The position numbers were made by a program, and so were the translations under genes. A stretch of 64,000 nucleotides of DNA from Candidatus Aenigmatarchaeota archaeon (lineage in GTDB: Archaea; EX4484-52). Shown one piece after another: positions 13,801 to 59,614 of the stretch. Each line of letters opens with the position of its first letter. Positions within the stretch are counted from its first letter, which is position 1. Below the pieces are notes generated by a model, which ran no database searches, was not told the origin of the DNA, and was given only the letters and a program-made list of their open reading frames with translations. The DNA lies in contig JAGLPV010000001.1 of the NCBI GenBank assembly GCA_023137195.1, positions 106,242 through 170,241 of the forward strand. Direction: 5' to 3'.

Positions 13801-16800
13801 ACCAAAGAATTGTTCCAGTCAATTAAAGTTGTTGTGTCGCTTGAATCAGTTATTGTTGTATTTACATAACTATAATCCCTGGTAACTATAGCCTCGTTAC
13901 TATCTGTCTGATTAACGAACTCTATATGAGGAGGAGTTGTGTCTATGTTAATAGTTCTTGTTGCTGAATTGATATTGCTTGCTGAATCCTGGGTGTATGT
14001 GGTGTATGTGTATGTTCCGTCGTTTAGGTTTGTGAAGTTGCGGTATAATCTGTGGAGTCCTGCGTTGTAGGAGGCGTTTATTTCTTCTGGTGATAAAATC
14101 CGGTTCCATATTTTTATTTCATCAATTGTACCATTGAAATAATATACCCATTTACCGACTTCTAAATCAGCACTTATATGATTATGTGTTATATTCGAGT
14201 ACCATTGATTGTTACAAGCATCATCCTCTCCATCAATATAAAGACATAATCTCTCATTTGGTTTGTCAACAACACCAACAACATGGTGCCATTCACCAAA
14301 ACTTATTAATCTTGACCTGTATGAATATCCAAAAGTACTATTGTCCGCGACGGTTAAATGAATATCATTTGCGGACCAACCTCTTGTAACAAGACCATAT
14401 TGCGTTGAACCCCAACTACCTCCTGTTCTTGCTACAATTCCCGAACTTTCAACATTACTTTCCCTGTAAATCCATGCTTCTATTGTAAGTTCATTTACTA
14501 TGTCTAAATTATCGCCCATGTTGACATAATCATTGTTTCCGTCAAACATTAGTCCTTTTCCGAATCTTGATGAAGATGTCCAGCCGGAACTTCCGTTGTT
14601 AATTCCAGAACTCATGTTTGTTAAAGTTCCGTTGTTGTTATATGTAGAACTGTCTTCAGTAGTTAGTCCGGTTCCTTCATTAAATCTCCACCAGCCGACC
14701 AATGAATTATTCCAGTCGATAAAGGCAGTGATATTATTTGTGTCTGTTGTTGTTGTGTTAATATAAGTATAATTCCTGCTAACATAAGCATTGTCTGTGT
14801 CTGTTGGATTAACGTATGTGATAGTAGGATTTATTGTATCTATAGTTACTGTTCTGGTGGCTGAAATAATATTCCCTACTGAATCCTGCGAATATGTAGT
14901 GTAAGTATAAGTTCCTTCTAATAAATTTGTAAAGTTGTGATAGAGTCGGTATAATCCTGTGTTGTAGGATGCATTGATTTCTTCCGGACCCAATACGCGA
15001 TTGTGTATTTTTACTTCATCTATTGTCCCGTTGAAAAAAGAAGTAATTCCGCTTACATCGTGATATCCGGCACCCATTATTATTTTACCATTGGTGGCTT
15101 GAGGATTTGGCTGATTGTCGTCCTGGACAACCAAACTCCCATTCAAATAAAACATTACGGTTTCACCATTTCTTATTATAGTAATATAGTACCATTCATC
15201 TGTGTTAATGCCTCTGCTACCAACAAGCCCCTCGTTGCTACAACCGGATTCGGATACAGAAACGGATGCACCGTCAGTATATATTCTGGGGTTATAGAAA
15301 CAATCTCCGGCATTGCCTCTGCGAAAAACTTCATCACTGCCGGTTGTGTTATCTACTTTAAACCAGAAGGAAATTGTATATATTGTATCTTCAGAACTAA
15401 CAGAACTACAATCAACATAATCATTTGCTCCGTCAAATATGATTGCGTTGCTAAACTTGCCTACTGTTGTCCTGCCGCTTGTGCCGTTGTCTATTCCTGT
15501 ATTCATATCAGTCATCGTCCCGTTGTTGCCATTGCCTGAAAAGTCTTCTACATTAGTGCCATTATTTTCATTCATTCTCCACCATGCAACCAATGAGTTG
15601 TTCCAGTCTATGAAGGATGTTATATTGTTTGTATCTGTTATTGTTGCATTAATGTATGTGTAATTTCTGCTGATGTAAATATTGTCTGCATCGGTTGGGG
15701 CAGTATATTCTATTGACGGGTTTGTTGTATCTATTGTTATTGTTCTTGTCTGGGTCTGGTTTATATTTCCTGCCATGTCCTGTGTGTATGCTGTGTATGT
15801 GTAGATGCCATCGTTTAGATTTGTGAAATTATGGTATAGTCTGTATGACCCTGTGTTGAAATCTGCTCTTACATCTACTGAGTTCAAAGCCATTTTCCAT
15901 ATCTTGATTTCATCTATTGTGCCGTTGAAATAATCCATTGATGCGCTCCACCCGAGAATGAAACTGTCGTATGTCAGGTTTTCTTTTGGAGTTATCCACT
16001 GCCAGCCGGCTTCATTTCCATTTACATAAAAATACATCTTTGTTGTGTTGTATACTGCCGCGAGATGAACAAATTCATCACTTGTCTGCGGTTTTGTTAT
16101 AATCCTGTCTATTGATGGAGTTATATATCTCAAGTGGTATTCGGAGTTTCTCAGGGCAAGATATGTATAAACCGGGCTGGTTGCTTCGCGGCTGGAATAT
16201 ATTGATTTTTGTTCACTAAATACATCTGATGTCCATAAAGGGTGTTTTATCCACAGAGATACTGTGTATCCTGTGGTCACAAAATTTGTAAATATATCTG
16301 ACCTGTTGAGTTTATCATTCCCGTCAAAACTTCTGGCTCCACCGAACTTTCCTGCGTTGGTGTATGTTGAACCGCTGTTGTCCGGGTTGTTGCTATATGT
16401 AGAATGGTCGGATAAATCAGAGCTGTTGTCGAACCGCCACCAGATGATTAAGGAATTGTTCCAGTCTATGAATGAGGATATATTATTTGTGTCTGTTGTT
16501 GTTGCGTTTATGTATGTGTAGTCTCTGCTTACGTAAGCGTTGTTTGTGTCGGTTGGATTGATGTAGGAGATAGTTGGATTTATTGTGTCTATTGTTATTG
16601 TTCTTGTTTGGGTTTGGTTTATGTTTCCGGCTGAGTCCTGGGCGTAAGTGGTGTATGTGTGGGTTCCGTCGTTTAGGTCTGTGAAGTTGTGGTAAAGGCG
16701 GTTGAGTCCTGCGTTGTAGGAGGCGTTGATTTCTTCCTCAGATAATGCCCTGTTGTAGATACGGACTTCGTCTATTGTACCATTCCACAGTCTATAATCA

Positions 16801-19800
16801 GATAAATAATATATTCCTCTCCCGATACGCATTGCTTCGCCCACATGATTATACATTGATGTTGTAGCTATAACAACATCGCCCTTATTACCATCAACAT
16901 ACACTATAATATGTGTTCCGTTCCACACACCAACTAAGTGATACCAAGTGTTTAATGATGGAGAGAGTTGAGTATATTTTGCTATACGCCAATTGCTATC
17001 TCCATCTTTTGTTTGTAGTTTAAACCAATCATTACCTACATCATATCTTAATTCAATGCTTCTGCCTCCATCTGCTTTACAAACAACACACTGGTCATCA
17101 CCTTTACTTATCATATATGCCCATGCTTCTATTGTAAAACTATTAAATGTGCTTAATTCTAAGTTGTCTATTGGCAAACCAACATAATCATTCACGCCGT
17201 CAAACTGCAAGGCGTTGCCGTATTTTCCGGATGATGTCCGACCGCTTGTTCCATTATTTATGCCGGTATTCATGCCTGCTAATGTGCCAATATTGCTATG
17301 TCCTGAAAAGTCTTCTGCTGTTGTGTCGCTTTCTTCATTCATTCTCCACCAGCCGACTAAGGAGTTGTTCCAGTCTATGAAAGCAGTTATGTTGTTTGTG
17401 TCGCTTGTTGTTGTGTTTATATAAGTATAATTCCTGCTGACGTAAACATTGTCTGTATCTGTCGGGTCGACGTATTTTATTGATGGATTTGTTGTGTCGA
17501 TTGTCAGTGTTCTTGTTGTTGAGTTTATATTTCCTGCTGAGTCTTGTGCGTATGCTGTGTAAGAATAAGTTCCATCTGTAAGAGAGGTGAAGTTGTGGTA
17601 GAGTCTGTATAAACCTGCATTGTAGGATGCGTTGATTTCTTCAGGGCTTAGGGCGCGGTTGTAGATTCGGAATTCATCTATTGAGCCATTGAATGGGACT
17701 GCTGATGTTGGTCTTGCACCAATATCCCAATTTAAAGAATAATTTATTAGACTCCAATCTCCCGTTGTTCCGCTTCCATTGACATAAGTATCATCATATA
17801 TAAAATAGACATCTGGATTCCTTAAAACCACACCTACAAAATGCCATTCATTTGCTGGTATGTTCGCTGCATAACTAGACATCATGCCTCCTTTCAGCCA
17901 TAAATCATTTGTATTCTCTACTTGGAATTCGATACCTCTGGAAGGCGTCGATATAAAGTTAGATATGATAGATCCCTCTGACGATGTTTTGAACGTTTCA
18001 GGTGTTTTTATCCAAGCCGTAATTGTTAGATTTGAACCATAAAAATTGGCTGTATTTAATGGTAAGTTCATATAATCATTATCGCCGTCAAACTCTAAAG
18101 CCGAGCCGAATTTACCTGATTCGTAAACAGGGCAATTGGTGCAGGTTCCGTTGTTGCCGTAACTGCTGTAATCTTTGAAGAATGTTGTATTTTCTCCGGG
18201 TTCCTGGTTGAATCTCCACCAGCCTACTAAGGAATTGTTCCAGTCCATGAAGGCAGTTATGTTGTTTGTGTCTGAGGTTGTTGTGTTTATGTAAGCGTAG
18301 TTGTCTGAAATGTATTTGTTGTTGCTTGGAGTAGGTGAGGTAAAACTTAGTTGCGGTGGTGTGGTGTCGAGAGTGCCGTTGCTTACGAATATGTCCCAAT
18401 TTTGGCTTGCTGTTGGTCCGCCTTCCTGATTTGGCAGACTGTCGAAATAGTCTTTTTTTAGGTTGTATTGGTTTGATATTTCTGTTGCATTTAATGCCCT
18501 GTTCCAGATTTTTACCTCGTCGATTGTGCCGTTGAAATATCTATTATCTGATGAATACCATCTTCCAATTCTAACTATATCAACTAAATTAACTAATGAA
18601 CCCGTCGCACTTTGCGATTTCTCCAAAATACCATTTACATAAAGAATATGTTTCGAGCCGTTATAAGTTGTTACTAAATGATACCACTCCTTAACTAAAG
18701 GCGTTGTTGGATTGTTGTCCATTTTATTTGCTTGAGATGTATTTCTTACAGAACATGCAAAACAATCATTTCCAATATCATACCATAACATAAACTTTCC
18801 GCTACTACCCGAATCGGTAATTACCACCATATCTTGACTTTTTTTATCTAAATTTACCCATGCACTGAACGTAATATCCTCTGTTACATCCAAACTCGCA
18901 TCATTCCCACAATCAACATAATCATCAACACCGTCAAAGTCCAGAGCATTCCCAAACTTGCTCGAAATTGTCCAGTCTGGCGGGTAGCCGTACAAAGTTC
19001 CTGTATTGCCCTTACCACTGCTGTCTGTTGCTAGGTCTGATGTTCCTCTTTCATCAAATTTCGTGTGCAAGACCAGTCCTTCACTGCTTATATTGGTTTC
19101 GAGTCCTGCCAAGCCGCGTTGGTAGTCCCAAGATATTTCGGTTGCGTTTAGGGTTCGGTTGTAAAGCATAATGTCATCAGCCATTCCTTTTGTGTATCTA
19201 TTATAATGATTCATTATAACAATCGGGTCAGTATTAACGCCATTATTAGTATCATTTATGCTTATTGCTGTTGCATCAGAAGAACCATCTGTATATAGAT
19301 ATAATTTATCCTCTGTCGCATTTTTAACAACAGCTATATGATGCCAGGTATCATCACAAACTACAGAAGTAGATTCTATGCTGTTGGATACTGTTGAATT
19401 ATAAGAAAGACCAAATGAATGATGTCCATTATCTCTAACATTCCAAAGGTAAGAAGGGTATAATATGCTTGTATCGTGATAACCTTTTGTAATCAATCCA
19501 TCGTTTGTATTAGTATCTGGTATTTTAATCCACATCATGAAAGTAAACGAAATACCTGTAGGAAATTCCAAATTACTATTATCTATTATACTAACATAAT
19601 CATTCGTTCCGTCAAAGTTCAAAGCACCGCCAATCTGTCCGGTAGTCCATTTGGTTTGTCCGCCTGTAGATGGGTTTAAAGTTCCGTCATTGTTATTCAA
19701 AGAATAGTTTGCACGGTCTTTTGCTGTTGCGCCTTGATTTTCGTTGAAATTTAAGCATAATACCTGTCCTGTGATGTTGCCGGATTCACAGGTGTCAACC

Positions 19801-39593: not shown

Positions 39594-40061
39594 TTACTTT
39601 ACAAGGATGTTTTCTTCTTTTATTGTGTTTAATATAAGAATTGTTTCTGTCTTTTCAATAAAATCATAGATCTGGATTTTTTTGAGGAAATTGTCCATTG
39701 ACTTCCTGTTCCTGAATTTTGCGATGATGATTGCATCAAAATTTCCAGTAACATCGTATATTGCAGATACATTCGGTTCTTTGGCAATCTTTTTTTCTAC
39801 TTCAAACAGCATTCCCTTGGAGATGCACAGTTTTATTATCACTTCTATATCATAGCCTAGTTTTGAGTAATCCAGGTGTACTGTGTGGTTTTTTATTATT
39901 TTTTCATTTTCTAGTTTTTTTATCCTGTTTAGTATTGTTACTGTTGAGAGTCCTGTTTTTTTGGCAATCCTGCGGCAGGACAATCCTGCATTTTTGAGGA
40001 GGATGTTTAGTATTTTCCTGTCTGTTTTGTCTATTGTCTTGTCCTTTTCCATATCAAACAA
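39594..40061 (-). CDS. Lrp/AsnC-family transcriptional regulator
   Basis: 155 aa. DKTDRKILNILLKNAGLSCRRIAKKTGLSTVTILNRIKKLENEKIIK (HTH_AsnC) plus a C-terminal RAM-like domain. Divergent from glnA. Confidence 0.85.
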   Translation of the reverse strand: MFDMEKDKTIDKTDRKILNILLKNAGLSCRRIAKKTGLSTVTILNRIKKLENEKIIKNHTVHLDYSKLGYDIEVIIKLCISKGMLFEVEKKIAKEPNVSAIYDVTGNFDAIIIAKFRNRKSMDNFLKKIQIYDFIEKTETILILNTIKEENILVK

Positions 40062-40419: not shown

Positions 40420-40438
40420 AGAAAAAAAAGTGAATAAA

Positions 40439-41758
40439 ATGGAAGACAAAATCTTTGAAAAAATAGAAAAAGACAATGTGAAATTTATACAACTGCAATT
40501 TAGTGATATTTTGGGTATTGCCAAGAGTTTGACTATCCCGGTTCGGTATCTGTCGGATGCATTAAATGACGGGACGTGGTTTGACGGATCTTCAATCGAG
40601 GGATTTACACGGATATGCGAGAGTGACATGTATCTTGTGCCGGATATTGATACGTATTCCGTTATCCCCTGGCTGAACTCTGAGGATGGGAATACTGCCA
40701 GATTTATCTGTAATATTTATACGCCAGATGGAATACTGTTCAAGGGGGATCCGAGATGTATTCTTAAGAGAGTTATTGCGGAGGCGAAAAAAATAGGGTT
40801 TGTCTACAATACAGGACCGGAACTGGAGTTTTTTTTATTCAAGAAAGAAAATGGCATCAGGGCATTGCCTCATGACAAAGGGGGGTATTTTGACCTGACA
40901 ACAGACCAGGCATACAATGTCCGTAGAGATATGACAGTTGCGCTTGAGAAATTTGGGATAGATATTGAAACATCTCATCACGAGGTTGCGCTGGGACAGC
41001 ATGAGATTTCATTTAAGTACAGCGATGCGCTAAAGACAGCAGATAATGCAGTCACTTTCAAAACTGTTCTCAAGGCGATAGCCCAGCAAAATGATTTGTA
41101 TGCCACCTTTATGCCAAAGCCGATTGCCGGGATTAACGGGTCGGGAATGCATGTTCACCAGAGCCTGTTTGACATAAAAACAGGGAAAAATGCATTTTAT
41201 GATGAAGGAGATAAATACCACTTGTCTAAAACTGCATATAATTTTATTGCAGGACAACTAGCTCATATCAAGGCAATGTCGGCAATACTTTCGCCTACTA
41301 TAAATTCTTATAAACGACTGGTTCCGGGATATGAGGCTCCAGTCTACATCTGCTGGGGAAGAATAAACCGGTCTGCGCTTGTCAGGATACCAAGGTATGC
41401 TAAAGGAAAGTATAATTCTACACGGGCTGAACTAAGATGTCCTGACCCAAGTAGCAATATTTACCTGACATTTGCAGTGATGCTTGCGGCTGGTCTTGAT
41501 GGTATTAAAAGAAATCTTGCTGCACCAAAGCCTGTTGAAGAGAATTTATATAAGTTAACTGATGCAGAGTTGAAAATAGATACTCTTCCCAAATCACTGG
41601 AAGAGGCATTGGGTGAATTGAAAAAAGACAAACTGATACAGGATGCTCTGGGAAAACACACTTATGAAAAGTTTCTGGAGGCAAAGACAGAAGAGTGTGA
41701 TGAATACAACCTTCAGGTCAGCAAGTGGGAACTAGACCGGTACCTAGAGGTTTATTAA
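40439..41758 (+). CDS. glnA: Glutamine synthetase type I
   Basis: Colinear GS-I motifs: FDGSSIEGF, NTGPELEFFLF, HHEVALGQHEISF, GSGMHVHQSLF and NSYKRLVPGYEAP. ATG at 40439 preferred over the track's GTG at 40430. Confidence 0.95.
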   Translation: MEDKIFEKIEKDNVKFIQLQFSDILGIAKSLTIPVRYLSDALNDGTWFDGSSIEGFTRICESDMYLVPDIDTYSVIPWLNSEDGNTARFICNIYTPDGILFKGDPRCILKRVIAEAKKIGFVYNTGPELEFFLFKKENGIRALPHDKGGYFDLTTDQAYNVRRDMTVALEKFGIDIETSHHEVALGQHEISFKYSDALKTADNAVTFKTVLKAIAQQNDLYATFMPKPIAGINGSGMHVHQSLFDIKTGKNAFYDEGDKYHLSKTAYNFIAGQLAHIKAMSAILSPTINSYKRLVPGYEAPVYICWGRINRSALVRIPRYAKGKYNSTRAELRCPDPSSNIYLTFAVMLAAGLDGIKRNLAAPKPVEENLYKLTDAELKIDTLPKSLEEALGELKKDKLIQDALGKHTYEKFLEAKTEECDEYNLQVSKWELDRYLEVY

Positions 41759-41763
41759 GTCGG

Positions 41764-42657
41764 TTACTTTTTCTTTTTTAATTTTTTTGGCTTAGGTATA
41801 TTTTTCTTGTAAACAATTGTGCGGTAAGGATATGGTATTTCTACTCCTTCTTTACAAAATCGTTTTTTTATTGACTCAAGTAATTCATAGCCTATTCGCG
41901 TGGCTGTAGGTTGGTCTGGTGTCCAGAACAATGCTCTTAGGGATACGCCGTTGTCTTTGAGTCTTCTCATGCGAACTACAGGAAGCTTTGTTGTATTGAT
42001 ATCTTTTGAGTCTTCTATTTTCAGGACAGCGGGATGTTTTTTTATTTCTTCCAGGATTATTTTACGTGAAAGGTCAATGTCTGAGTCATAGCTGATAGAA
42101 ATATCGATATATTTCAGGATTTTTTCATCTTCTATACTGAAATTTACAATGGGATCTTTGCTGATGATGTGATTTGGGATTATTATCCTCTTGTTTTCCC
42201 ATGTCCTTATGACTGTATGGCGAAATGTTATGTCTTCGACTATTCCCTGTTCTCCTGAAATTTTCAGCCTGTCCCCCAGACGAAATGGCTGGAATATGGC
42301 AAGACTGATGCCTGCTATGATGTTTGAGAGTGCGTCCTGTGCTGCAAGACCAATGACAAGACCCATTACACCAACACCTGCAAAGAGACCGACTGAAAGA
42401 GCACGTAGTTCCGGGATAACATAAAATACTGTGCCAAGACCAAGTAGGTATATCATTGCTATTGTTACCTTTCTTGCCATTACATGCCTGGTGATGTCTC
42501 TTTTCCTGTGTAATTTTGATGTCTTTTCAATGCGAAAGAAAGCACGCTTCACTATTTTGGCGATAATGGGGGTTATTATGACAATGAAAAGTACGAGCCA
42601 CATCTGTTGATTAAATAAATTTAATATATTGAAAATTCCCTGTATATTCAAATCCAT
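41764..42657 (-). CDS. mscS: Small-conductance mechanosensitive channel (MscS family)
   Basis: 297 aa. Three N-terminal TM segments, then LSNIIAGISLAIFQPFRLGDRLKISGEQGIVEDITFRHTVIRTWENKRIIIPN (MscS beta-domain signature). Confidence 0.85.
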   Translation of the reverse strand: MDLNIQGIFNILNLFNQQMWLVLFIVIITPIIAKIVKRAFFRIEKTSKLHRKRDITRHVMARKVTIAMIYLLGLGTVFYVIPELRALSVGLFAGVGVMGLVIGLAAQDALSNIIAGISLAIFQPFRLGDRLKISGEQGIVEDITFRHTVIRTWENKRIIIPNHIISKDPIVNFSIEDEKILKYIDISISYDSDIDLSRKIILEEIKKHPAVLKIEDSKDINTTKLPVVRMRRLKDNGVSLRALFWTPDQPTATRIGYELLESIKKRFCKEGVEIPYPYRTIVYKKNIPKPKKLKKKK

Positions 42658-42742: not shown

Positions 42743-43996
42743 TCATTCATGCCTCAAAGCATCAACAGGTTTTAGTTTAGAAGCTTGGTATGCCGGAATT
42801 ACCCCGGAAAGCGTGCCGATAATGACGGATATTGAAAGCGAAAGCACGACACTATTCATCGTAACAATTGTTGATGAACCCAGTTTGCCGGTTACGCCAC
42901 TTGCACCACCCATAAGCATCGGCAGCAGACCAGACAACAAGTAACCAAAAATTACACCTATCGCACCTCCAATAAGAGCTATTAAAACAGAGTTTAGCAA
43001 AAATATCATCATGATATCTTTGTTTCTTGCACCGACTGCTTTCATAATGCCAATCTCCTTTGTTTTTTCAAGAACAGAAGTAAACATTGTATTTGCGATT
43101 CCGACCGCTCCGACAAGGAGCGCGACTGCGGCGATAGCTGCCAAAAACATCGTCATAGAACCCATCATTTCCGCCACTCTTTCTGCTGTTTCTTTAGAAC
43201 TATAGATGGAAAAATCCTTGTTTTTTTCTGTCACATGGCGTACATTCATTAATTTTCTTTCAATGTTTTCTATGGCGAGATCAAGTTCCTCTTCATTCTT
43301 TATTTTTATCTCAAAAGAATCATATATTCCAATTTCCTTATCATCCAATACATGATATGCTGACTGCAAAGGCATGAATACATCACTTCCTTCATTATCG
43401 AGGATGCCGACCACTCTAAATGCCATATTATTTATTGTAATCATCTGATTGATGCCGATTGGCTTATCAAAATAATCTCTTGATAGTCTGCCTCCGATGA
43501 CAACTACATTGGCGTCTGAGGGTCCCAGCATTCTTCCATCTTCGATTTTATTGAGTGTAATTTGCGACCAGACTTTTGGATCAACGCCGGTCACAGATAC
43601 AGAACCTTTTTTCGCAAGAAAATACACATCTGCATTGGCTCGAATAATAGGATTGATAAGTTTTATGTCCGGTATTCCTTTTAATGCCTGAAGATCTATC
43701 CGGTCGAGCACTATTTCTTCAGCAGTGGCGATTGTACCACTAGAAGGGAGTTTCCCTCCACCCATTCCATGACCGCTAAATCTCGCTGCTTTGGAGACTC
43801 CCGGACTAATAGTCAGTATGTCTCCCCCCAAGTCACCTAATTGAGAACTAACACTTTGCTGCATTCCTTCGCCCATAGACAGGATGGCAATTACTGAAGC
43901 CACTCCAATGACAATTCCGAGTATAGTCAGCCAGCTTCTTAACTTACTGTGCCGAACCATATTCAGCGCGTGCCCAAAAGATTTAATCAGTTTCAT
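42743..43996 (-). CDS. ABC transporter permease (MacB-like: MacB_PCD + FtsX domains)
   Basis: 417 aa. N-terminal TM, a large periplasmic-type domain, then a C-terminal FtsX-like 3-TM bundle (EIGIMKAVGARNKDIMMIFLLNSVLIALIGG...IPAYQASKLKPVDALR). Confidence 0.85.
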   Translation of the reverse strand: MKLIKSFGHALNMVRHSKLRSWLTILGIVIGVASVIAILSMGEGMQQSVSSQLGDLGGDILTISPGVSKAARFSGHGMGGGKLPSSGTIATAEEIVLDRIDLQALKGIPDIKLINPIIRANADVYFLAKKGSVSVTGVDPKVWSQITLNKIEDGRMLGPSDANVVVIGGRLSRDYFDKPIGINQMITINNMAFRVVGILDNEGSDVFMPLQSAYHVLDDKEIGIYDSFEIKIKNEEELDLAIENIERKLMNVRHVTEKNKDFSIYSSKETAERVAEMMGSMTMFLAAIAAVALLVGAVGIANTMFTSVLEKTKEIGIMKAVGARNKDIMMIFLLNSVLIALIGGAIGVIFGYLLSGLLPMLMGGASGVTGKLGSSTIVTMNSVVLSLSISVIIGTLSGVIPAYQASKLKPVDALRHE

Positions 43997-44033: not shown

Positions 44034-45422
44034 TTATTTTTTGTTTTTCCCAAAGACACCATACGCCATTTTTTTATAGGTGTAGTTCGGGTCGTTTAGT
44101 CGTTCTTTCCTGTATTTTTTATGCACGAAAACAAGAATCAGAAGTACAATAAACCCTATGCCGATGTATTTTGTTGTTGATGTTTCATCTTTTGTTGTAA
44201 CTCCTCTTTGTCCTGTCTTCCCTGCTGCAAATGAAACCTGTCCGTCTTCTCCAAACACTGGCGCAATAGAAGATGAGTCTATGTTTATTTCTTTAGTGAT
44301 TGTATGTCTCTCTCCTCTCGTATCAGTGTAGCTTATCTTGATATTCAGTGGGGTTGAGTCCACAGGAGATGGTCTGGCTTGAGGAGAATCCTCTGTCTTT
44401 TGCACCTCTTCTTCAGATTCCTTCACAGCACTACCTGATTGTTGCAGACTAAAGCCCGCAACTGTGTAATCTCCTTTGTTTAGGTTGCCTATGATGACAG
44501 AATTAATCCCGCTGACTTTCCATCCTTTTTGATTAGGAATGCTTATTGTCACTGAGCTGGCAGAGACGCTCCCTACATTGGCGATAGAAAAAGAAGTTTC
44601 TCCCATTGAACTGCCGGAGAAAGTAATGTCAAAATCCGTCTCTCCTCCAACATATACTCCTGCGCTTGTAAGGATATTGGTTTCTTCCCCGCTGACAGAA
44701 TCATCATAAGTTAGGCTTAAGGTGAGTTTGTATAAATCAGGCTCTGCATTTGCGCTTGCAATTACATTATAAGAGAGTTCAGCACTTTCGTCGATATCTA
44801 GGTATTTAATATGTCTTGTGTCGTCAGAACCAACAGGAAGGATTACGTTGTCTTCATTTTCCCATGAAAATTTAAGATTCCTTAATGGAGCAGAACCGAC
44901 ATTGTTGATAGTGAATGTCATGGCAGTTTGTTTTCCCGGCAAAAGTTCAACCTTGTCAATATATATTATTTCCGCGCTTTCCTTGTTTTTGATGTCGATG
45001 CTTAGTATTACTTCTGTTTTTGCCAAATCTTTCTGACCTTCTTTATATTTCCACAGCTTTAATTCATAACTGCCTGCAATAGCATCTTTGTCTGTTTTTA
45101 TCTTGTATTTGACGATTTTAATATCATCGCCGTCCTGGTATCCTCTTATTGCACCGATATTTCGTACAGATGTTTCGCCTAATGCTAATTCGAAAGGATA
45201 TTGCGGCACAAGTTCCAATACAATATTTTCAGCAATCGTTCCTCCTTTATTTTCAATGCCTATTCTTACTTCCGCTATATTCCCTGCTATTGCCGGGTCC
45301 GGATCCTGGTTCGTCAAAGATACAATTAAGGCTCCAATATCTGCCAAATCATCAGCTAATGCCGGTGTTGAGAGAGCCATCATTACAATCAGCATGATGC
45401 TGAAAATATATTTTGTTTTCAT
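44034..45422 (-). CDS. Secreted CARDB/COG1361-type surface protein with a C-terminal TM anchor (middle gene of the ABC operon)
   Basis: 462 aa. Signal peptide MKTKYIFSIMLIVMMALSTPALA. NQDPDPAIAGNIAEVRIGIENKGGTIAENIVLEL and FTINNVGSAPLRNLKFSW beta-sandwich patterns. TM segment YIGIGFIVLLILVFV near the C-terminus. Confidence 0.65.
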   Translation of the reverse strand: MKTKYIFSIMLIVMMALSTPALADDLADIGALIVSLTNQDPDPAIAGNIAEVRIGIENKGGTIAENIVLELVPQYPFELALGETSVRNIGAIRGYQDGDDIKIVKYKIKTDKDAIAGSYELKLWKYKEGQKDLAKTEVILSIDIKNKESAEIIYIDKVELLPGKQTAMTFTINNVGSAPLRNLKFSWENEDNVILPVGSDDTRHIKYLDIDESAELSYNVIASANAEPDLYKLTLSLTYDDSVSGEETNILTSAGVYVGGETDFDITFSGSSMGETSFSIANVGSVSASSVTISIPNQKGWKVSGINSVIIGNLNKGDYTVAGFSLQQSGSAVKESEEEVQKTEDSPQARPSPVDSTPLNIKISYTDTRGERHTITKEINIDSSSIAPVFGEDGQVSFAAGKTGQRGVTTKDETSTTKYIGIGFIVLLILVFVHKKYRKERLNDPNYTYKKMAYGVFGKNKK

Positions 45423-45434
45423 ATTAATACCTGT

Positions 45435-46133
45435 TTATTTTTGTTTATTGTTTTTCTCCATTCTAACGACTTTTCCATCTTTTAGTTCAATTATGTCATG
45501 GGCATATTCTGCCAGATGTAAATCATGAGTTACCATAATAACTGTTTTTCCTTCTTCCTTCCATATTTTTTCAAGCATATCCAAGACTTCTTTTCCTGTG
45601 ACACTGTCGAGTGCGCCGGTTGGTTCATCTGCAAGGATGATTTCCGGGTCGGCTACGAGACATCTTGCGATTGCTACTCTTTGCTGTTGTCCGCCCGAGA
45701 GTTGGGATGGGAGATGGTGGATTTTGTCTTTTAGTCCTACGAGAGCCAATACATTTTTTGCTCTTTTTTCTGCTATTGTCTCGTCCTCTTCCTGCAATTC
45801 AAGCGGCAAAATTACATTTTCATACGCAGTCATGTGCGGTATGAGATTGTATTGCTGAAATATAAATCCAATTGTCTTTCCTCTTAGGGTTGATAAATCT
45901 GATTCGCTCAAGTTCGCAATATCCTGTGATTTTAATGAAATATTTCCCTTTGATGGGGTGTCCAGGCACCCTACAAGATTCATCATGGTGCTTTTGCCTG
46001 AGCCGGATGCACCTATTATTGCAACGAAGTCGCCTTTTTTTATATCAACAGTGATTCCCCTGAGGGCAGGCACTTCTACTTCGCCCATCTGGTAAATTTT
46101 CCAGACATCCCTGAAAGATATTATTGAGTCCAT
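45435..46133 (-). CDS. ABC transporter ATP-binding protein (MacB/LolD-type)
   Basis: 232 aa. Walker [11 protein letters not shown]-loop, signature [15 protein letters not shown], Walker [12 protein letters not shown], and H-loop VTHD. Confidence 0.95.
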
Positions 46134-46146
46134 AGGTATATATGTA

Positions 46147-46175
46147 TGAAACCGTATTTATAAGTTTAGTGAAAC
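46147..46175 (-). promoter_or_regulatory. 29-nt GAAAC-TATA-GAAAC promoter/operator motif, copy A (upstream of the ABC operon)
   Basis: Plus strand TGAAACCGTATTTATAAGTTTAGTGAAAC. On the gene (minus) strand it reads GTTTCACTAAACTTATAAATACGGTTTCA, ending 13 nt before the ATG at 46133. 21 of 29 positions are invariant among copies A, B and C. Confidence 0.6.
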
Positions 46176-46192
46176 TCAACCAGTAGCATTTA

Positions 46193-46480
46193 TTATTCAC
46201 CCACCTTCTTCGCATTATTTTTCCTGCCAGACAGCATAGTTTTTGTTACTGCTTTAATCCAGTTCCAGTGCAGAGCTAAATGAATTAATACAAGCAATCC
46301 CATAATAAGACCGCTCCAATCGTGCAGTAGTGTAATGTTTTTTACATGCAATACTTTGTATGCTGAAGTACCTATGATTTTTATCAGACCAGGCCACTTA
46401 ATCAATCCTGTAATGAAACAAATGAAAAAAGATATTGCCAATCCTATATCTATAAAATAATTTACTTTTGTTCTATTCAT
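46193..46480 (-). CDS. DUF4405-like small membrane protein
   Basis: 95 aa. NYFIDIGLAISFFICFITGLIKWP ... LHDWSGLIMGLLVLIHLALHWNW, the typical DUF4405 pattern. Confidence 0.55.
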   Translation of the reverse strand: MNRTKVNYFIDIGLAISFFICFITGLIKWPGLIKIIGTSAYKVLHVKNITLLHDWSGLIMGLLVLIHLALHWNWIKAVTKTMLSGRKNNAKKVGE

Positions 46481-46481
46481 T

Positions 46482-46820
46482 TCAAACGCCTCCCAATTCA
46501 GGTTCCTTCTTTATTTCTTCTGCAATGTCTTTTATTATAGCAGGCGAAAATTTATATTCTTCTCTCATTTTCTCCAATGTTGTTTCTGTTGTATAATTGC
46601 CTTTGAATTCAAATTCTTCCACAATTCCATCGAGGAGTTTTTGTGAGTCTATTTCCCACAAATCTGCGACCTGCTGTACTGTCAGTTGTTTCATTGCACT
46701 TCCTTCTATTTCTACTGAGTGGTCGTGCAGTTCGTCGTCTGAATGTTCGTGGTCTGAGTTGGATGTGCATCCGCTAATGGCTGTTAAAAGTATCAGACAT
46801 ATTAATATTATTTTTTTCAT
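46482..46820 (-). CDS. Lipoprotein with a His/Asp-rich N-terminal region, hypothetical
   Basis: 112 aa. Lipobox LLTAISGC, then TSNSDHEHSDDELHDHSVE. AGGAGG Shine-Dalgarno upstream of the ATG. A 1-nt gap to the downstream DUF4405 gene suggests an operon. Confidence 0.6.
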   Translation of the reverse strand: MKKIILICLILLTAISGCTSNSDHEHSDDELHDHSVEIEGSAMKQLTVQQVADLWEIDSQKLLDGIVEEFEFKGNYTTETTLEKMREEYKFSPAIIKDIAEEIKKEPELGGV

Positions 46821-46869
46821 TTTATTCCTCCTATTATATTCTTCTTCTTTCCTTCAAATTATATATGTT

Positions 46870-46898
46870 GGAAACCATATATAAATGTTTACTGAAAC
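46870..46898 (-). promoter_or_regulatory. 29-nt GAAAC-TATA-GAAAC motif, copy B (upstream of the lipoprotein/DUF4405 operon)
   Basis: Plus strand GGAAACCATATATAAATGTTTACTGAAAC. On the gene strand it reads GTTTCAGTAAACATTTATATATGGTTTCC, about 50 nt upstream of the ATG at 46820. Confidence 0.6.
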
Positions 46899-46924
46899 TG
46901 TTAAAAAAATAAAAAAAGAAGGCT

Positions 46925-47413
46925 TTACTGCCCTCCTATTCTTTTCATAGCTCCGTGGTTGTTGTCTGTATCTCCGGAAAATTTGTGCTGCATTTTTTGT
47001 CCTTTGTTTTGTCCATCTCCATTCTTATAACCTGTTCCATCTGCCGGTCCATTGCCATTGTTTAGACCAAGTTCTGTTCTTAATTGCGCTGCTGTTTCAT
47101 GGTCTCCGTTTTCTCCTGCTTCGTGCGCTTGGACAAAGGTTTCAAAGTTCTCTGCTGTCACAACATCAACAACTCTTGGGCGCCTGTCGTTCTGGGTCAT
47201 TAATGAATACCATGCATCATAGTCATTATATTCAAATGCCAGTTCCATCTCATCGTGCCTTTCATCGCTGCAATTAGGTCCTTCTGTGGTGTAGTCTCCT
47301 CTATATGCACTTGCTATGCTTACGGATAAAATCAGTCCGATAATAGCAAACATCGACAAAGCCATTATTGTGTTTTTATTTTTCATATATTTCATCTCCA
47401 TGGTTTTCACCAT
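46925..47413 (-). CDS. Secreted hypothetical protein
   Basis: Signal peptide MKNKNTIMALSMFAIIGLILSVSIASA. ERHDEMELAFEYNDYDAWYSLM ... ENFETFVQAHE pattern and a Gly/Asn-rich tail. I trimmed the start to the ATG at 47411-47413 because the track start (47458) would lie inside motif copy C. The ATGs at 47401 and 47392 are alternatives. Confidence 0.55.
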   Translation of the reverse strand: MVKTMEMKYMKNKNTIMALSMFAIIGLILSVSIASAYRGDYTTEGPNCSDERHDEMELAFEYNDYDAWYSLMTQNDRRPRVVDVVTAENFETFVQAHEAGENGDHETAAQLRTELGLNNGNGPADGTGYKNGDGQNKGQKMQHKFSGDTDNNHGAMKRIGGQ

Positions 47414-47426
47414 AGTTCTATAGAAC

Positions 47427-47455
47427 TGAAACCGTATATATATGTTCGCTGAAAC
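47427..47455 (-). promoter_or_regulatory. 29-nt GAAAC-TATA-GAAAC motif, copy C (divergent intergenic region)
   Basis: Plus strand TGAAACCGTATATATATGTTCGCTGAAAC. On the minus strand it reads GTTTCAGCGAACATATATATACGGTTTCA, about 14 nt upstream of the ATG at 47413. Confidence 0.6.
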
Positions 47456-47499
47456 CATTGGAAAAAGTTTCCGGAAGTTGAAACCATTGGAAAAGGTTT
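47451..47499 (+). promoter_or_regulatory. Two 20-nt direct repeats preceding the TATA-like box of the HTH regulator gene
   Basis: GAAACCATTGGAAAAAGTTT (47451-47470) and GAAACCATTGGAAAAGGTTT (47480-47499), 19/20 identical. The second runs into TTTATAAATTTT about 20 nt before the ATG at 47519. The first overlaps the 3' GAAAC of motif C. Confidence 0.55.
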
Positions 47500-47518
47500 A
47501 TAAATTTTGGCTTCTAAT

Positions 47519-48085
47519 ATGTCTATGAACAAGAAAATTAAAAATATAATGATGCTGGTTTCAATAGCGGCAATGATAGGGTTGGTAATTATTATTTTTT
47601 CCAGTCTTATGGATGTGTACAAAACATCATCGGAGAATAATAGAAATTCACCTATGATTCCAAGATATATATTGTGGACTTCTATGACACTTATGATTCT
47701 TGTGATTGTTCCTATTTCTTATTTTCTGATATCCAAAAGGCTGGATGAAAAACTCGAAAAGAATATGGAAGTGATTTCGAAACTACTTGGTGGAGGGAAT
47801 ACGCCTCTAAAAACAGAGCCGGGTAATGTGGATAATGTGGCGGATAAGAATATTATTTTGAAGTTTCTGAGTCCTAATGAAAGGACGATAATTAGAAAAT
47901 TGATTGAGAAGGAAGGTACTATACTTCAGTCAGAGATAACAAGGATTGAATGGATGGGTAAATTGAAGACTCACCGGGCTGTTGAGGAACTTAAGCGGAA
48001 AGGGATAATCAAGACAGAGAAATACGGGAAGACTAATCGGATTATTTTAGAGAAGGATGTTGCTGATGTTTTGATGGAGAAATAA
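47519..48085 (+). CDS. Membrane-associated winged-HTH regulator (COG2512-like)
   Basis: Two N-terminal TM helices, then LSPNERTIIRKLIEKEGTILQSEITRIEWMGKLKTHRAVEELKRKGIIKTEKYGKTNRIIL (MarR/wHTH-like). ATG at 47519 preferred over the track's TTG at 47507. Confidence 0.65.
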   Translation: MSMNKKIKNIMMLVSIAAMIGLVIIIFSSLMDVYKTSSENNRNSPMIPRYILWTSMTLMILVIVPISYFLISKRLDEKLEKNMEVISKLLGGGNTPLKTEPGNVDNVADKNIILKFLSPNERTIIRKLIEKEGTILQSEITRIEWMGKLKTHRAVEELKRKGIIKTEKYGKTNRIILEKDVADVLMEK

Positions 48086-48340
48086 TCAATACTCTTTGTA
48101 AACATTCTTTCGGTGTCCTATCTTTATTACCATAATCAAGAGAGTTCCGTTATCAATATCCATAAGAATCCTGTAATTTCCGACACGTAATTTGTATGCA
48201 GATTCTCCAACAAGCTTTTTTACATGGGCTTCCGGTCTTATCCTGATTCGTTCCAGTACTGCAATAATTCTTTTCTGGATATTTTTTTCTAATTTCTTAA
48301 GCTGATTTTTTGCTTTTTTTGAAAAAATAATATCGTACAT
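48086..48340 (-). CDS. relE: Type II toxin, RelE/ParE family
   Basis: 84 aa. MYDIIFSKKAKNQLKKLEKNIQKRIIAVLERIR ... YKLRVGNYRILMDIDNGTLLIMVIKIGHRKNVY is the canonical RelE/StbE pattern. Confidence 0.85.
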   Translation of the reverse strand: MYDIIFSKKAKNQLKKLEKNIQKRIIAVLERIRIRPEAHVKKLVGESAYKLRVGNYRILMDIDNGTLLIMVIKIGHRKNVYKEY

Positions 48341-48346
48341 AGGAGG

Positions 48347-48565
48347 TTATAAGTTCAGTTCTTTCTTGACATGATCTAGTGTATAGAAATTTCCCTGTTT
48401 TATTTCATCACGGGATTCTTCAAGCTCTTTTTTTGTCTGTTCGTCCAGTTCTCTTCCATCCTCTATCAAATCCCAAATTACCTCTTCGTATGTTTCTTTC
48501 TTAGAAAATTTTCTTTCAGTCAATGTTTGCTGTAATTCCCTACTCATCTGAACTGTAGTTGCCAT
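48347..48565 (-). CDS. Cognate antitoxin of the RelE-like toxin
   Basis: 72-aa acidic ORF 6 nt upstream of relE on the same strand. The position and size are typical. The family is not recognised from the sequence alone. Confidence 0.6.
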   Translation of the reverse strand: MATTVQMSRELQQTLTERKFSKKETYEEVIWDLIEDGRELDEQTKKELEESRDEIKQGNFYTLDHVKKELNL

Positions 48566-58894: not shown

Positions 58895-59614
58895 ATGGAA
58901 ACCTATAAACAAAATTTTGCAAAACTGCTTGCAGATACAGAAGCTTTATTTTTTGATGATAATCTGGTCTTGAAGGATGGAAGACCTACGCCGTATTTTG
59001 TGAATATGGGCAAATTCAAGAGCGGAAAACTAAACAATCAATTGTGTTCTTATTATGTGGAGATGCTTGTTGAAAAAGGCATTATCGACAATATAGATAT
59101 AGTTTTCGGACCTTCTTACAAGGGTAGTTCAATTGCCTGCGGGATGGTTAATGTCTTGTGGACAAAATACAATATTGATAAGCTATATGAATATGACCGG
59201 AAGGAGGCAAAAACCCATGGCGATGCTTCAGGCAAGAAAAAGATGTTTGTCAACAATACTTTTTTTGACAATTGCAGGGTTTATATTGTCGATGATGTTG
59301 CAACCTCAATGGCAACTAAAGTAGAATCAATAGAAAAAATTCAAAATGATGCAGAGGATAATAATATAAATATAATCGTTGCTGGCGTTGGGATTGGGAT
59401 AGATCGGGAACAGACAAATGTAGAAGGACAGAATGCGATTGCTAATTTTGTTGAAAAGACAAGCATTCCTGTGCATTCTGTGGCAGGGATAAATGAGGTT
59501 GTTCAATACCTGTATGAGGAGAAGATTCCTGTTTTGATTAAGGGAGAAAAACAGCCCATTGATGAAGAAGTAAAGAAGCGGTTTGATGATTACATTGAAA
59601 CGTATGGGGTTTAG
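58895..59614 (+). CDS. pyrE: Orotate phosphoribosyltransferase
   Basis: 239 aa. LVLKDGRPTPYFVNMGKF, GPSYKGSSIA, and the PRPP-binding loop VYIVDDVATSMATK. Followed 5 nt later by pyrF. Confidence 0.75.
   Translation: METYKQNFAKLLADTEALFFDDNLVLKDGRPTPYFVNMGKFKSGKLNNQLCSYYVEMLVEKGIIDNIDIVFGPSYKGSSIACGMVNVLWTKYNIDKLYEYDRKEAKTHGDASGKKKMFVNNTFFDNCRVYIVDDVATSMATKVESIEKIQNDAEDNNINIIVAGVGIGIDREQTNVEGQNAIANFVEKTSIPVHSVAGINEVVQYLYEEKIPVLIKGEKQPIDEEVKKRFDDYIETYGV

Follow-up and report, generated by a model that had tools for sequence, protein, structure and literature searches.

A candidate operator bracketing the TATA box and its association with a divergent transmembrane DUF7343 regulator across archaeal phyla

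BcrR of Enterococcus faecalis has an N-terminal XRE helix-turn-helix and four transmembrane (TM) helices and activates bcrABD; Bce modules use two-component signalling, and ZraPSR and CpxP-CpxAR consist of a histidine kinase and a response regulator working on sigma54 or sigma70 promoters. To our knowledge, very few archaeal transcription factors have a defined operator. Proteins that carry a DNA-binding domain and at least one TM region in one polypeptide, the TTRs (transmembrane transcription regulators), are a recognised and widespread class with an average of about four per archaeal genome (Demey et al. 2023, PMC10269533), and ArnR and ArnR1 of Sulfolobus acidocaldarius, which act on archaellum and pilus genes, are the sole characterised archaeal membrane regulators (PMC6396743). 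Here we analysed 64,000 nucleotides of a Candidatus Aenigmatarchaeota archaeon genome (assembly GCA_023137195.1, contig JAGLPV010000001.1, positions 106,242 to 170,241 of the forward strand; hereafter the window), in which three copies of a 29-nt promoter motif lie beside a divergent gene for a predicted membrane-tethered protein with a Pfam DUF7343 domain. We propose, with a probability of roughly 0.78, that this adjacent transmembrane regulator controls a small regulon and that the motif is the core promoter bearing its operator; the regulator would most likely act by repression.

The motif has the general form GTTTCA-N7-TATA-box-GGTTTCA. Its copies, and the other elements of the regulatory region, are listed here.

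46147-46175, minus strand: motif copy A, GTTTCACTAAACTTATAAATACGGTTTCA, a putative extra operator and promoter directly before an ABC (ATP-binding cassette) ATPase gene
46870-46898, minus strand: motif copy B, GTTTCAGTAAACATTTATATATGGTTTCC, made up of half-site h3, a B recognition element (BRE) with TATA box, and GGTTTCC; putative promoter of a lipoprotein-DUF4405 unit
47427-47455, minus strand: motif copy C, GTTTCAGCGAACATATATATACGGTTTCA, putative primary operator and promoter of a secreted protein of about 160 aa
47415-47432, plus strand: degenerate palindrome I, GTTCTA-TAGAAC-TGAAAC, with two mismatches to GTTTCA-N6-TGAAAC
47467-47484, plus strand: palindrome II, GTTTCC-GGAAGT-TGAAAC, with one mismatch to GTTTCA-N6-TGAAAC
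47497-47504, plus strand: predicted TATA box of the regulator gene, TTTATAAA, 20 nt upstream of the ATG at 47525
47525-48085, plus strand: the regulator gene, 186 aa, Pfam DUF7343, with an alternative ATG at 47519

An earlier note on this DNA had placed the three 29-nt copies on the minus strand and counted 21 of 29 invariant positions among them; direct reading of the sequence and a recount gave the same result. Copy C consists of half-site h3 (GTTTCA), a BRE-like GCGAAC, the TATA box TATATATA and half-site h2 (GGTTTCA). The GTTTC boxes described in that note are real, but their spacing of 22 nt is not: the boxes lie 23 nt apart from start to start, with a gap of 18 nt, and the figure of 22 runs from G1 to the G of GGTTTC. 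Within the 64-kb window, a degenerate form of the motif allowing up to three mismatches matched copies A to C only, and no site in 100 dinucleotide-preserving shuffles. The exact pattern GTTTC-N18-GTTTC was likewise confined to the three copies, and the bare GGTTTC hexamer was not enriched (36 observed, 34 expected). We rejected one near-match, at 58898-58925, as a chance occurrence because its box is broken and it overlaps the start of a pyrE-like gene.

Upstream of the regulator gene, two 20-nt direct repeats that had been noted earlier (47451-47470 and 47480-47499) are indeed present and agree at 19 of 20 positions, and so is an inverted GTTTCC at 47467, which together with TGAAAC at 47479 forms the GTTTCC-N6-TGAAAC of palindrome II. 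Palindrome II separates the two divergent promoters and directly precedes the BRE/TATA of the regulator gene; it is presumed to be the autoregulatory site. Palindrome I occupies the space between the copy C TATA box and the predicted transcription start. Other loci hold GGTTTCA-N6-TGAAA(C/T) at the equivalent position, and in copy C the second arm is degenerate (TAGAAC). When the 64-kb window was scanned for such palindromes, counts were at chance level except for the two sites adjoining the regulator.

The divergent gene had been read as encoding two TM helices and a winged helix-turn-helix (wHTH), and both Pfam and an AlphaFold model agree with that reading. DUF7343 (PF24034) matches residues 119-177 with 31.6 bits against a cut-off of 27.6 (E=1.5e-7), and PF24034 is also the precomputed annotation on nearly all regulator homologues. 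In the AlphaFold2 model (pLDDT 72, from a 36-sequence alignment; 186-aa numbering), a TM helix at about residues 3-33 is followed by a short outside loop, a second TM helix that continues into a cytoplasmic helix (47-88), a disordered linker (89-104) and the winged helix (105-184); the two long hydrophobic helices cover residues 3-33 and 47 to about 70. The linker could give the wHTH reach or serve as a cleavage site, in which case the wHTH might be released by proteolysis at residues 89-104. With a predicted DNA-binding domain and TM region in one polypeptide, the protein falls within the TTR class as defined above. Its predicted recognition helix contains M-G-K-L-K-T-H-R. In an alignment of homologues, H150 and R151 of this helix are invariant and K148 and V153 occur in at least 90% of sequences, while in the TM hairpin P46, P63 and S65 are invariant and Y66 is nearly so.

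Similarity to proteins outside the family is slight. The best sequence match in the PDB is a MarR/EmrR protein, a marginal hit over 37 residues (E=0.006), and Foldseek against the PDB ranked ScoC, RdhR, AntR, CadC(pI258) and SqrR best, all with E>1e-3 and all generic MarR/ArsR winged helices. Pfam gave no MarR match at E<=0.01 and no Trans_reg_C match, and no NCBIfam model covers the regulator, the sub-threshold matches to membrane-anchor families being restricted to the TM region. A hypothetical protein encoded in a Candidatus Aenigmarchaeota metagenome-assembled genome (MAG) matches the regulator at 100% identity, which places the window in a DPANN archaeon. With homologues clustered at 50% identity, an exhaustive profile search gave 46 clusters at E<=1e-30; at E<=1e-10 there were 295. 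All named sources of the homologues are MAGs, which is probably why the family is uncharacterised.

We then asked how regulator and motif are associated in other genomes, starting from the protein. A profile scan with the regulator, using one genome per species, returned 27 loci from MAGs of Nanobdellati, Aenigmatarchaeota, Woesearchaeota, Nanohalarchaeota, Altiarchaeota, Bathyarchaeia, Thermoplasmatota, Methanosarcinales, Thermococci and Methanobacteriota, and 25 of these could be assessed for the motif. The divergent promoter carried an exact GTTTC-N17/18-GTTTC around a TATA box in 20 of the 25, and a variant in 4 more (three with GAAAT, one with a single mismatch). When the 260 nt upstream of each regulator were read, almost all loci shared one layout, which on the regulator strand runs TTTCAT-N5/6-TGAAACC, ATATATAAA-N7, TGAAACC, about 10 nt, GTTTCA-N6-TGAAAC(C), about 10-15 nt, CTTTATAAA, about 22-27 nt and then the ATG. 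Because identity between the regulators of different loci is only about 40-55%, the near-invariance of the operator points to selection rather than recent transfer. The system thus appears, from these comparisons, to be family-wide across archaea rather than confined to the window genome.

In a close relative (L001; we number loci in this way where they need to be told apart), the regulator is 86% identical, and copies B and C are identical and in the same place. There is no copy A in L001, where the DUF4405 gene runs directly into the ATPase gene; in the alignment, copy A lies inside a segment of about 76 nt that L001 lacks. Copy A is a lineage-specific addition, absent from the closest relative. 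Its position in an insertion or deletion, together with gene content downstream of the motif that varies between loci, could suggest that the repeats mark where cassettes end or recombine in a mobile or shuffling gene-cassette system, or else that they are a transcribed RNA element. However, in most loci the motif occurs once, at a set distance from a start codon, and no recombinase is associated with it. The motif pattern had no matches in viral contigs, so the system does not appear to be virus-borne. As for an RNA element, all Rfam matches were below gathering scores, the copies share no RNA fold and the motif lies upstream of the predicted transcription start. We therefore rejected a CRISPR-like or cassette-boundary reading, most genomes having one copy and always at a fixed distance from the start codon, and give this whole group of explanations next to no weight.

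The association also holds when one starts from the DNA. Scanning metagenomes by the pattern GGTTTCA-N8-WTWWATAY-GGTTTCA alone yielded 122 sites on at least 120 contigs, and regulator homologues were sought by a hidden Markov model in six-frame open reading frames (ORFs) of these motif-bearing contigs. Among the matches listed, 10 of the 122 sites lay at a contig end and were not assessable; 98 of the 112 others had a regulator homologue within about 1 kb. At 88 of the 112 the regulator was divergent and within 300 nt, typically 56-122 nt away, and the 10 further sites with a regulator within about 1 kb were mostly second motifs driving a small gene convergent with the regulator. The earlier note had proposed a local regulon with a cis-encoded, membrane-tethered HTH regulator whose site overlaps the TATA box, and this co-occurrence in both directions supports it.

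A second motif of this kind occurs in one regulator subclade (L046, L033, L050, L059, L113, L128, L144), in which it typically reads GGTTTCACCAGCAGTTTATATATGGTTTCA and lies downstream of the regulator gene. The gene it drives is convergent with the regulator gene, seems to be leaderless and encodes about 75-82 aa. The product has a signal peptide and two APNSGDG(I/V)PDGSGW repeats.

These results bear on whether the motif could simply be the strong-promoter consensus of its lineage, without specific regulatory information. At its centre, a purine-rich, BRE-like stretch accompanies a sequence that reads as a canonical archaeal TATA box, and all three copies stand at promoter positions, as that explanation would have it. 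But no other gene in the 64 kb has these GTTTC boxes, the boxes persist across phyla that differ in their general promoters, a regulator homologue adjoins the great majority of assessable sites, and extra TGAAAC palindromes occur outside any promoter core. The earlier note had reckoned with a motif found at many unrelated genes; we found no other copies in the 64 kb, and elsewhere the downstream genes belong to a few recurrent classes. A generic promoter is thus a very improbable account of the motif.

The architecture around the motif was read by anchoring 139 unique sites on it and examining positions outside the search pattern. GTTTC was commonest at -28 and GAAAC at -15, which gives a GTTTCA-N6-TGAAAC palindrome on the regulator side, and ATGAAA recurred at the unselected positions +35 to +40. 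Motif positions 14-15 were T-rich, completing a TTTATATA box; in the window copies and the 139 sites alike, TTTATATA-type 8-mers occupy positions 14-21, with RAAC ahead of them. The full architecture appears to be two GTTTCA-N6-TGAAAC palindromes and a lone half-site bracketing the BRE/TATA. The 29-mer would then be made up of the lone half-site abutting the BRE, the BRE/TATA itself and the first arm of the downstream palindrome, and the real operator unit is predicted to be the GTTTCA-N6-TGAAAC palindrome.

If the regulator reads these sites directly, residues of its recognition helix would be expected to pair with particular bases. All 20 exact-motif loci combine a Lys-type recognition helix, M-x-K-[LV]-[KR]-x-H-R, with GAAAC(C) operators, and GAAAT(C) half-sites were found in loci selected by their regulator, namely the Thr-type L005 and L006 and the Pro-type L020. 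We fetched further, previously unseen contigs for more non-Lys regulators. Thr-type L151, L152 and L154 have GAAAT at most half-sites, and Arg-type L156/L157 and L158 have mainly GAAAC, with A rather than C as the next base. This pairing of residue and base matches what direct base readout by the recognition-helix residue would predict.

The covariation also bears on another possibility, that the motif is bound by some other factor, for example a soluble transcription factor encoded elsewhere, and that the membrane wHTH protein is a co-regulated target or a tether for DNA or a partner. The weak match of the wHTH to known DNA-binding families (MarR at E=0.006, Foldseek at E>1e-3) would suit such an account, as would the 14 motif sites, among the matches listed, where 700 nt or more of available sequence contain no regulator. 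However, divergent linkage across phyla, with 88 of 112 sites within 300 nt among those matches, usually marks a transcription factor that is cognate and autoregulated. In addition, changes in the recognition-helix residue go with changes in the sixth base of the half-site, the predicted recognition helix keeps H150 and R151 invariant and K148 and V153 conserved, and no second conserved transcription factor was found in the locus neighbourhoods. We consider a separate factor unlikely.

Archaeal transcription normally starts about 22-27 nt past the TATA box. The ATGs that follow copy A (46133) and copy C (47413) both fall at motif position 43, 22 nt past the TATA 8-mer, an offset common to 21 sites elsewhere. 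Because this distance matches the usual start distance, the spacing fits leaderless mRNAs from copies A and C. Offsets of the first ORF are bimodal, at +14 to +16 after GGTTTC (21 sites) and at about +38 to +50. For copy B a 5' untranslated region of about 35 nt is predicted, with a GGAGG Shine-Dalgarno sequence at 46829-46833. The position of the regulator's TATA box also fits a leaderless transcript, and in related loci CTTTATAAA is conserved 20-27 nt ahead of the regulator ATG.

Putting these elements together, we propose the following mechanism. The recognition unit would be the hexamer TGAAAC, with dimers probably sitting on GTTTCA-N6-TGAAAC palindromes. At the primary operator, binding would extend from the TATA box to the start site of the divergent promoter, flanking the BRE, with the lone half-site abutting the BRE on its other side. 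The second palindrome, next to the regulator's own BRE/TATA, would provide autoregulation, and the secondary promoters at copies A and B would offer just two half-sites bracketing the BRE/TATA. The membrane-tethered protein would most likely repress its target promoters and tune its own. We favour repression because the TATA boxes come close to the consensus and because the footprint of TBP, TFB and RNA polymerase is flanked or overlapped by the sites. A signal, probably envelope or metal stress, would act at the membrane or the extracytoplasmic part of the protein and relieve repression. It could be sensed directly, through secreted CpxP/ZraP-like or metal-binding proteins under the regulator's control, or through the MacB-type transporter; the short outside loop and the invariant residues of the TM hairpin suggest sensing within the membrane or through a partner such as the secreted protein or the MacB transporter. 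The output would be a MacB-type ABC exporter together with its CARDB surface partner, and small secreted proteins that bind metal or resemble chaperones.

The same regulator and operator could instead work as an activator, recruiting TFB or TBP in the manner of Ptr2 or TFB-RF1, with the signal promoting binding. Half-site h3 lies directly upstream of the BRE at every site and palindrome II directly upstream of the regulator's BRE, both being positions that archaeal activators use, and copies A and B do not have the downstream palindrome arm that would best block RNA polymerase. Nevertheless, activated archaeal promoters usually have a weak BRE/TATA, whereas the TATA boxes here are near-consensus (TTTATATA). 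A full palindrome from the TATA box to the start at primary sites is a typical repressor position, and the placing of half-sites on either side of the TATA box points to occlusion. Activation thus seems to us rather unlikely, though a good deal less so than a separate DNA-binding factor.

Repression by the adjacent membrane regulator, the interpretation we prefer, has several points to answer. The regulator is assigned to the motif by association. A half-site just upstream of the BRE, as found here, is the classic position of an archaeal activator, and copies A and B have no second palindrome arm. The 14 sites without a regulator have already been mentioned. In the covariation, one Thr-type locus (L155) is mixed, with GAAAC at two sites, and because the Thr-type regulators form one clade the whole pattern amounts to about two independent events. 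The extracytoplasmic loop, at about 13-25 residues, is small for a ligand sensor. Finally, the suggestion of a metal or envelope signal draws on protein composition and on weak-to-moderate family matches in other loci.

The genes that follow the motif elsewhere fall into recurrent classes. We scored 136 unique canonical sites, 55 of which had at least 3 kb of downstream sequence and were treated as long operons. A MacB-type permease and an ABC ATPase are present in 30 of these 55, and 25 of the 30 add a CARDB surface protein, so that the CARDB protein recurs between the ATPase and permease genes in 25 of 55 long operons. The first gene encodes a small protein with a Sec signal, about 70-130 aa long and rich in Cys, His, Asp and Gly, at 63 sites; it is the ABC ATPase itself at 23 sites, and at 15 unique sites it encodes a protein related to the secreted protein of the window, with AIExNDYxAWK and ITEENFxxFVQ repeats. 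Examples of the small proteins include FVDADGDGVCDN repeats followed by CPMH...GGCHGSEGCPMMKEGFKGGCH, a His/Met-rich WHGFGMHGE...NCPMH, APNSGDGIPDGSGW repeats, and GPGDGTGxKGNGPKDGTGYGPGNC. In the Thr- and Arg-type loci and in L004 and L008, the first gene encodes an LTxxQ protein. Those of L151, L152 and L154, which have conserved Cys, hit the CpxP/Spy/ZraP family in Pfam (Metal_resist, best E=9.8e-10, and LTXXQ); in L004 and L008 the LTEEQ motifs were recognised by eye. A Yip1-domain membrane protein is encoded downstream of the first gene in L152 and L154, and behind the first motif-driven gene there is an ArsR-type regulator (HTH_5 E=3e-8, ELCAC motif; fam10) in four loci and a SAM-dependent (S-adenosylmethionine-dependent) methyltransferase in two.

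Judging by composition and family names, the theme of the regulon is probably extracytoplasmic, with metal or envelope stress as the likely setting; the tentative hint at metal in the earlier note draws some indirect support from these secreted proteins. We would extend this, tentatively and with some doubt, to a widespread one-component envelope or metal stress response of archaea, in which a repressor that has hardly any extracellular domain clamps the TATA box between half-sites from the membrane and senses the signal through its own secreted targets, as feedback, or through MacB flux, a functional counterpart of the bacterial Cpx, Zra and Bce systems. Regulated proteolysis at the linker might also set the wHTH free.

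Some further observations concern these other loci. The commonest first gene (L010, L011, L014, L017, L023, L031, L032, L039 and many others) encodes a secreted family of about 105-130 aa with two or three thrombospondin-type-3-like FVDA(D/N)(G/N)DG(V/I)CDN repeats and a C-terminal Cys/His/Met cluster, CPMH...GCHGSEGCP(R/M)MKEGFKGGCH. No Pfam family matched it above threshold, TSP_3 reaching 20.4 bits against a cut-off of 25. In L151 (1267-3192, minus strand) and L155 (354-2264, minus strand), both Thr-type, a gene of about 640 aa on the same strand downstream of the Metal_resist-like first gene matches the Lon_C protease domain; its product could be a quality-control protease or one that processes the regulator. 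In the Arg-type L156 (3496-7130, minus strand), an ArsR-ArsP-thioredoxin-ArsP-ferredoxin cluster adjoins the regulator/MacB module.

In the window, reading of the ORFs and Pfam confirmed the genes that had been assigned downstream of copies A, B and C.

45435-46133, minus strand: ABC ATPase of MacB/LolD type; Pfam ABC_tran E=3e-34, best NCBIfam matches MacB and LolD
44034-45422, minus strand: surface protein, secreted and C-terminally anchored, with Pfam CARDB/NPCBM_assoc (NEW3) domains
42743-43996, minus strand: MacB-type permease; Pfam MacB_PCD E=1.9e-34, FtsX E=1.2e-20, NCBIfam MacB
46482-46820, minus strand: lipoprotein with a His/Asp-rich N-terminus, DHEHSDDELHDH; in NCBIfam a match to the lipoprotein signal peptide only
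46193-46480, minus strand: small DUF4405 membrane protein with cytochrome b561-like helices; Pfam PF14358 E=3.1e-9
46925-47413, minus strand: secreted helical-repeat protein of about 160 aa, the putative first target gene, with a signal peptide, AIExNDYxAWK and ITEENFxxFVQ repeats and a Gly/Asn/Asp-rich tail

The transporter has the features of a MacB-type (type VII) ABC system, with NCBIfam MacB/LolD matches that are below the equivalog cut-offs. Homologues of the lipoprotein occur in L001 and L126. Neither the secreted protein at 46925-47413 nor its family has a credible Pfam or PDB match, and the window protein did not match PF13801 (Metal_resist) or PF07813 (LTxxQ) even at E<=1. For this reason, we confine the label CpxP/ZraP-like to its positional equivalents in other loci.

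Several neighbours of the locus are recorded here in their own right. The MacB permease gene is followed on its own strand, after 85 nt, by an MscS-type mechanosensitive channel gene (41764-42657, minus strand); the channel's membership in the regulon is doubtful because the position is not conserved in related loci. Directly downstream of the regulator, and convergent with it, is a ParE-family toxin gene (48086-48340, minus strand; Pfam ParE_toxin E=2.5e-11), preceded by a gene for a 72-aa acidic protein (48347-48565, minus strand), without a Pfam match, that is a putative antitoxin. L001 has a type I restriction-modification methylase (HsdM) and a KilA-N protein where the window has the ParE pair, so the downstream flank of the regulator is variable. 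Further away, a gene for an Lrp/AsnC-type regulator (39594-40061, minus strand) is divergent from a glutamine synthetase gene (40430-41758, plus strand), a classic nitrogen-regulation pairing unrelated to the regulon. A giant ORF (4875-21896, minus strand; about 5,670 aa) encodes a surface protein with at least 11 Laminin_G_3 (concanavalin-like lectin) domains as well as Big_13 Ig-like domains and sialidase-N/pentaxin-like modules, which may be a DPANN host-attachment protein. The DNA under this ORF at 6-12 kb is unusual in composition, with a GC content of 0.42-0.45, a GC skew of up to +0.54 and an AT skew of -0.47 on the plus strand.

With a near-invariant operator, a defined regulon and a predicted BRE/TATA geometry, control of an archaeal promoter from the membrane becomes directly testable. 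The regulator family spans DPANN lineages, Bathyarchaeia, Thermoplasmatota and methanogen-related lineages. It offers a regulatory handle on archaeal MacB-type ABC and CARDB operons, which are ubiquitous and functionally obscure, and on small secreted families rich in Cys, His and Asp, and together these point to a function in envelope or metal stress. The motif can also be used as a genomic marker for annotating the regulon in metagenomes.

In the literature searched we found no mention of DUF7343, no description of the regulator family, its operator or its regulon, and nothing relevant on MacB together with CARDB in archaea. The 'dark matter' paper of Makarova 2014 mentions SalXY-like ABC loci and not the regulator, and the PSP paper does not cover the window system. 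The upstream activating sequence of GvpE contains TGAAACGG; we set this aside, GvpE being an unrelated haloarchaeal activator.

Among described systems, the TTR class (PMC10269533) comes nearest in general organisation, the window regulator likewise being a one-component protein with a DNA-binding domain and TM helices that presumably acts from the membrane. Within that class its architecture sets it apart from ArnR and ArnR1 as described: these have an N-terminal HTH and a C-terminal TM region, whereas the window regulator has the reverse order, with an N-terminal TM hairpin and a C-terminal DUF7343 wHTH. Its presumed operator of TGAAAC boxes on both sides of the BRE/TATA differs as well, as does its regulon of a MacB ABC transporter, CARDB protein and secreted proteins that would bind metal or resemble chaperones.

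The bacterial regulators ToxR, CadC and TcpP resemble the window regulator in having a membrane-tethered winged helix and repeated sites next to or overlapping the target promoters. However, these are mostly activators, with an OmpR-type wHTH at the N-terminus, a single TM helix and a periplasmic sensor domain of considerable size. The window regulator, with two TM helices, a C-terminal MarR/ArsR-like wHTH, an outside loop of about 13-25 residues and an archaeal TBP/TFB promoter to act on, falls outside this group. BcrR and the Bce modules offer a different parallel, that of a membrane regulator beside an ABC operon likely to serve resistance or export, with transporter-based sensing as a possibility; BcrR is one-component, as is the window regulator, and there is no sequence relationship to BcrR or Bce.

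In the enterobacterial envelope-stress systems ZraPSR and CpxP-CpxAR, as in several loci related to the window, a membrane sensor-regulator unit is divergent from a small secreted LTxxQ/Metal_resist protein, and the Lon_C-domain gene of L151 and L155 recalls DegP of the Cpx regulon. Here, however, one membrane-tethered protein would do the work of both kinase and response regulator, and the window's secreted protein has no detectable LTxxQ/Metal_resist similarity. MarR and ArsR repressors, finally, have a winged-helix fold like that of residues 105-184, and palindromic operators overlapping the promoter, with autoregulation, are likewise predicted for the window regulator. The window protein has neither the dimerisation helices nor the ligand pocket of MarR; it is membrane-anchored and has no significant sequence membership in either family. 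We conclude that regulator, operator and regulon appear to form a cross-phylum module, as yet undescribed, within the known class of transmembrane one-component regulators.

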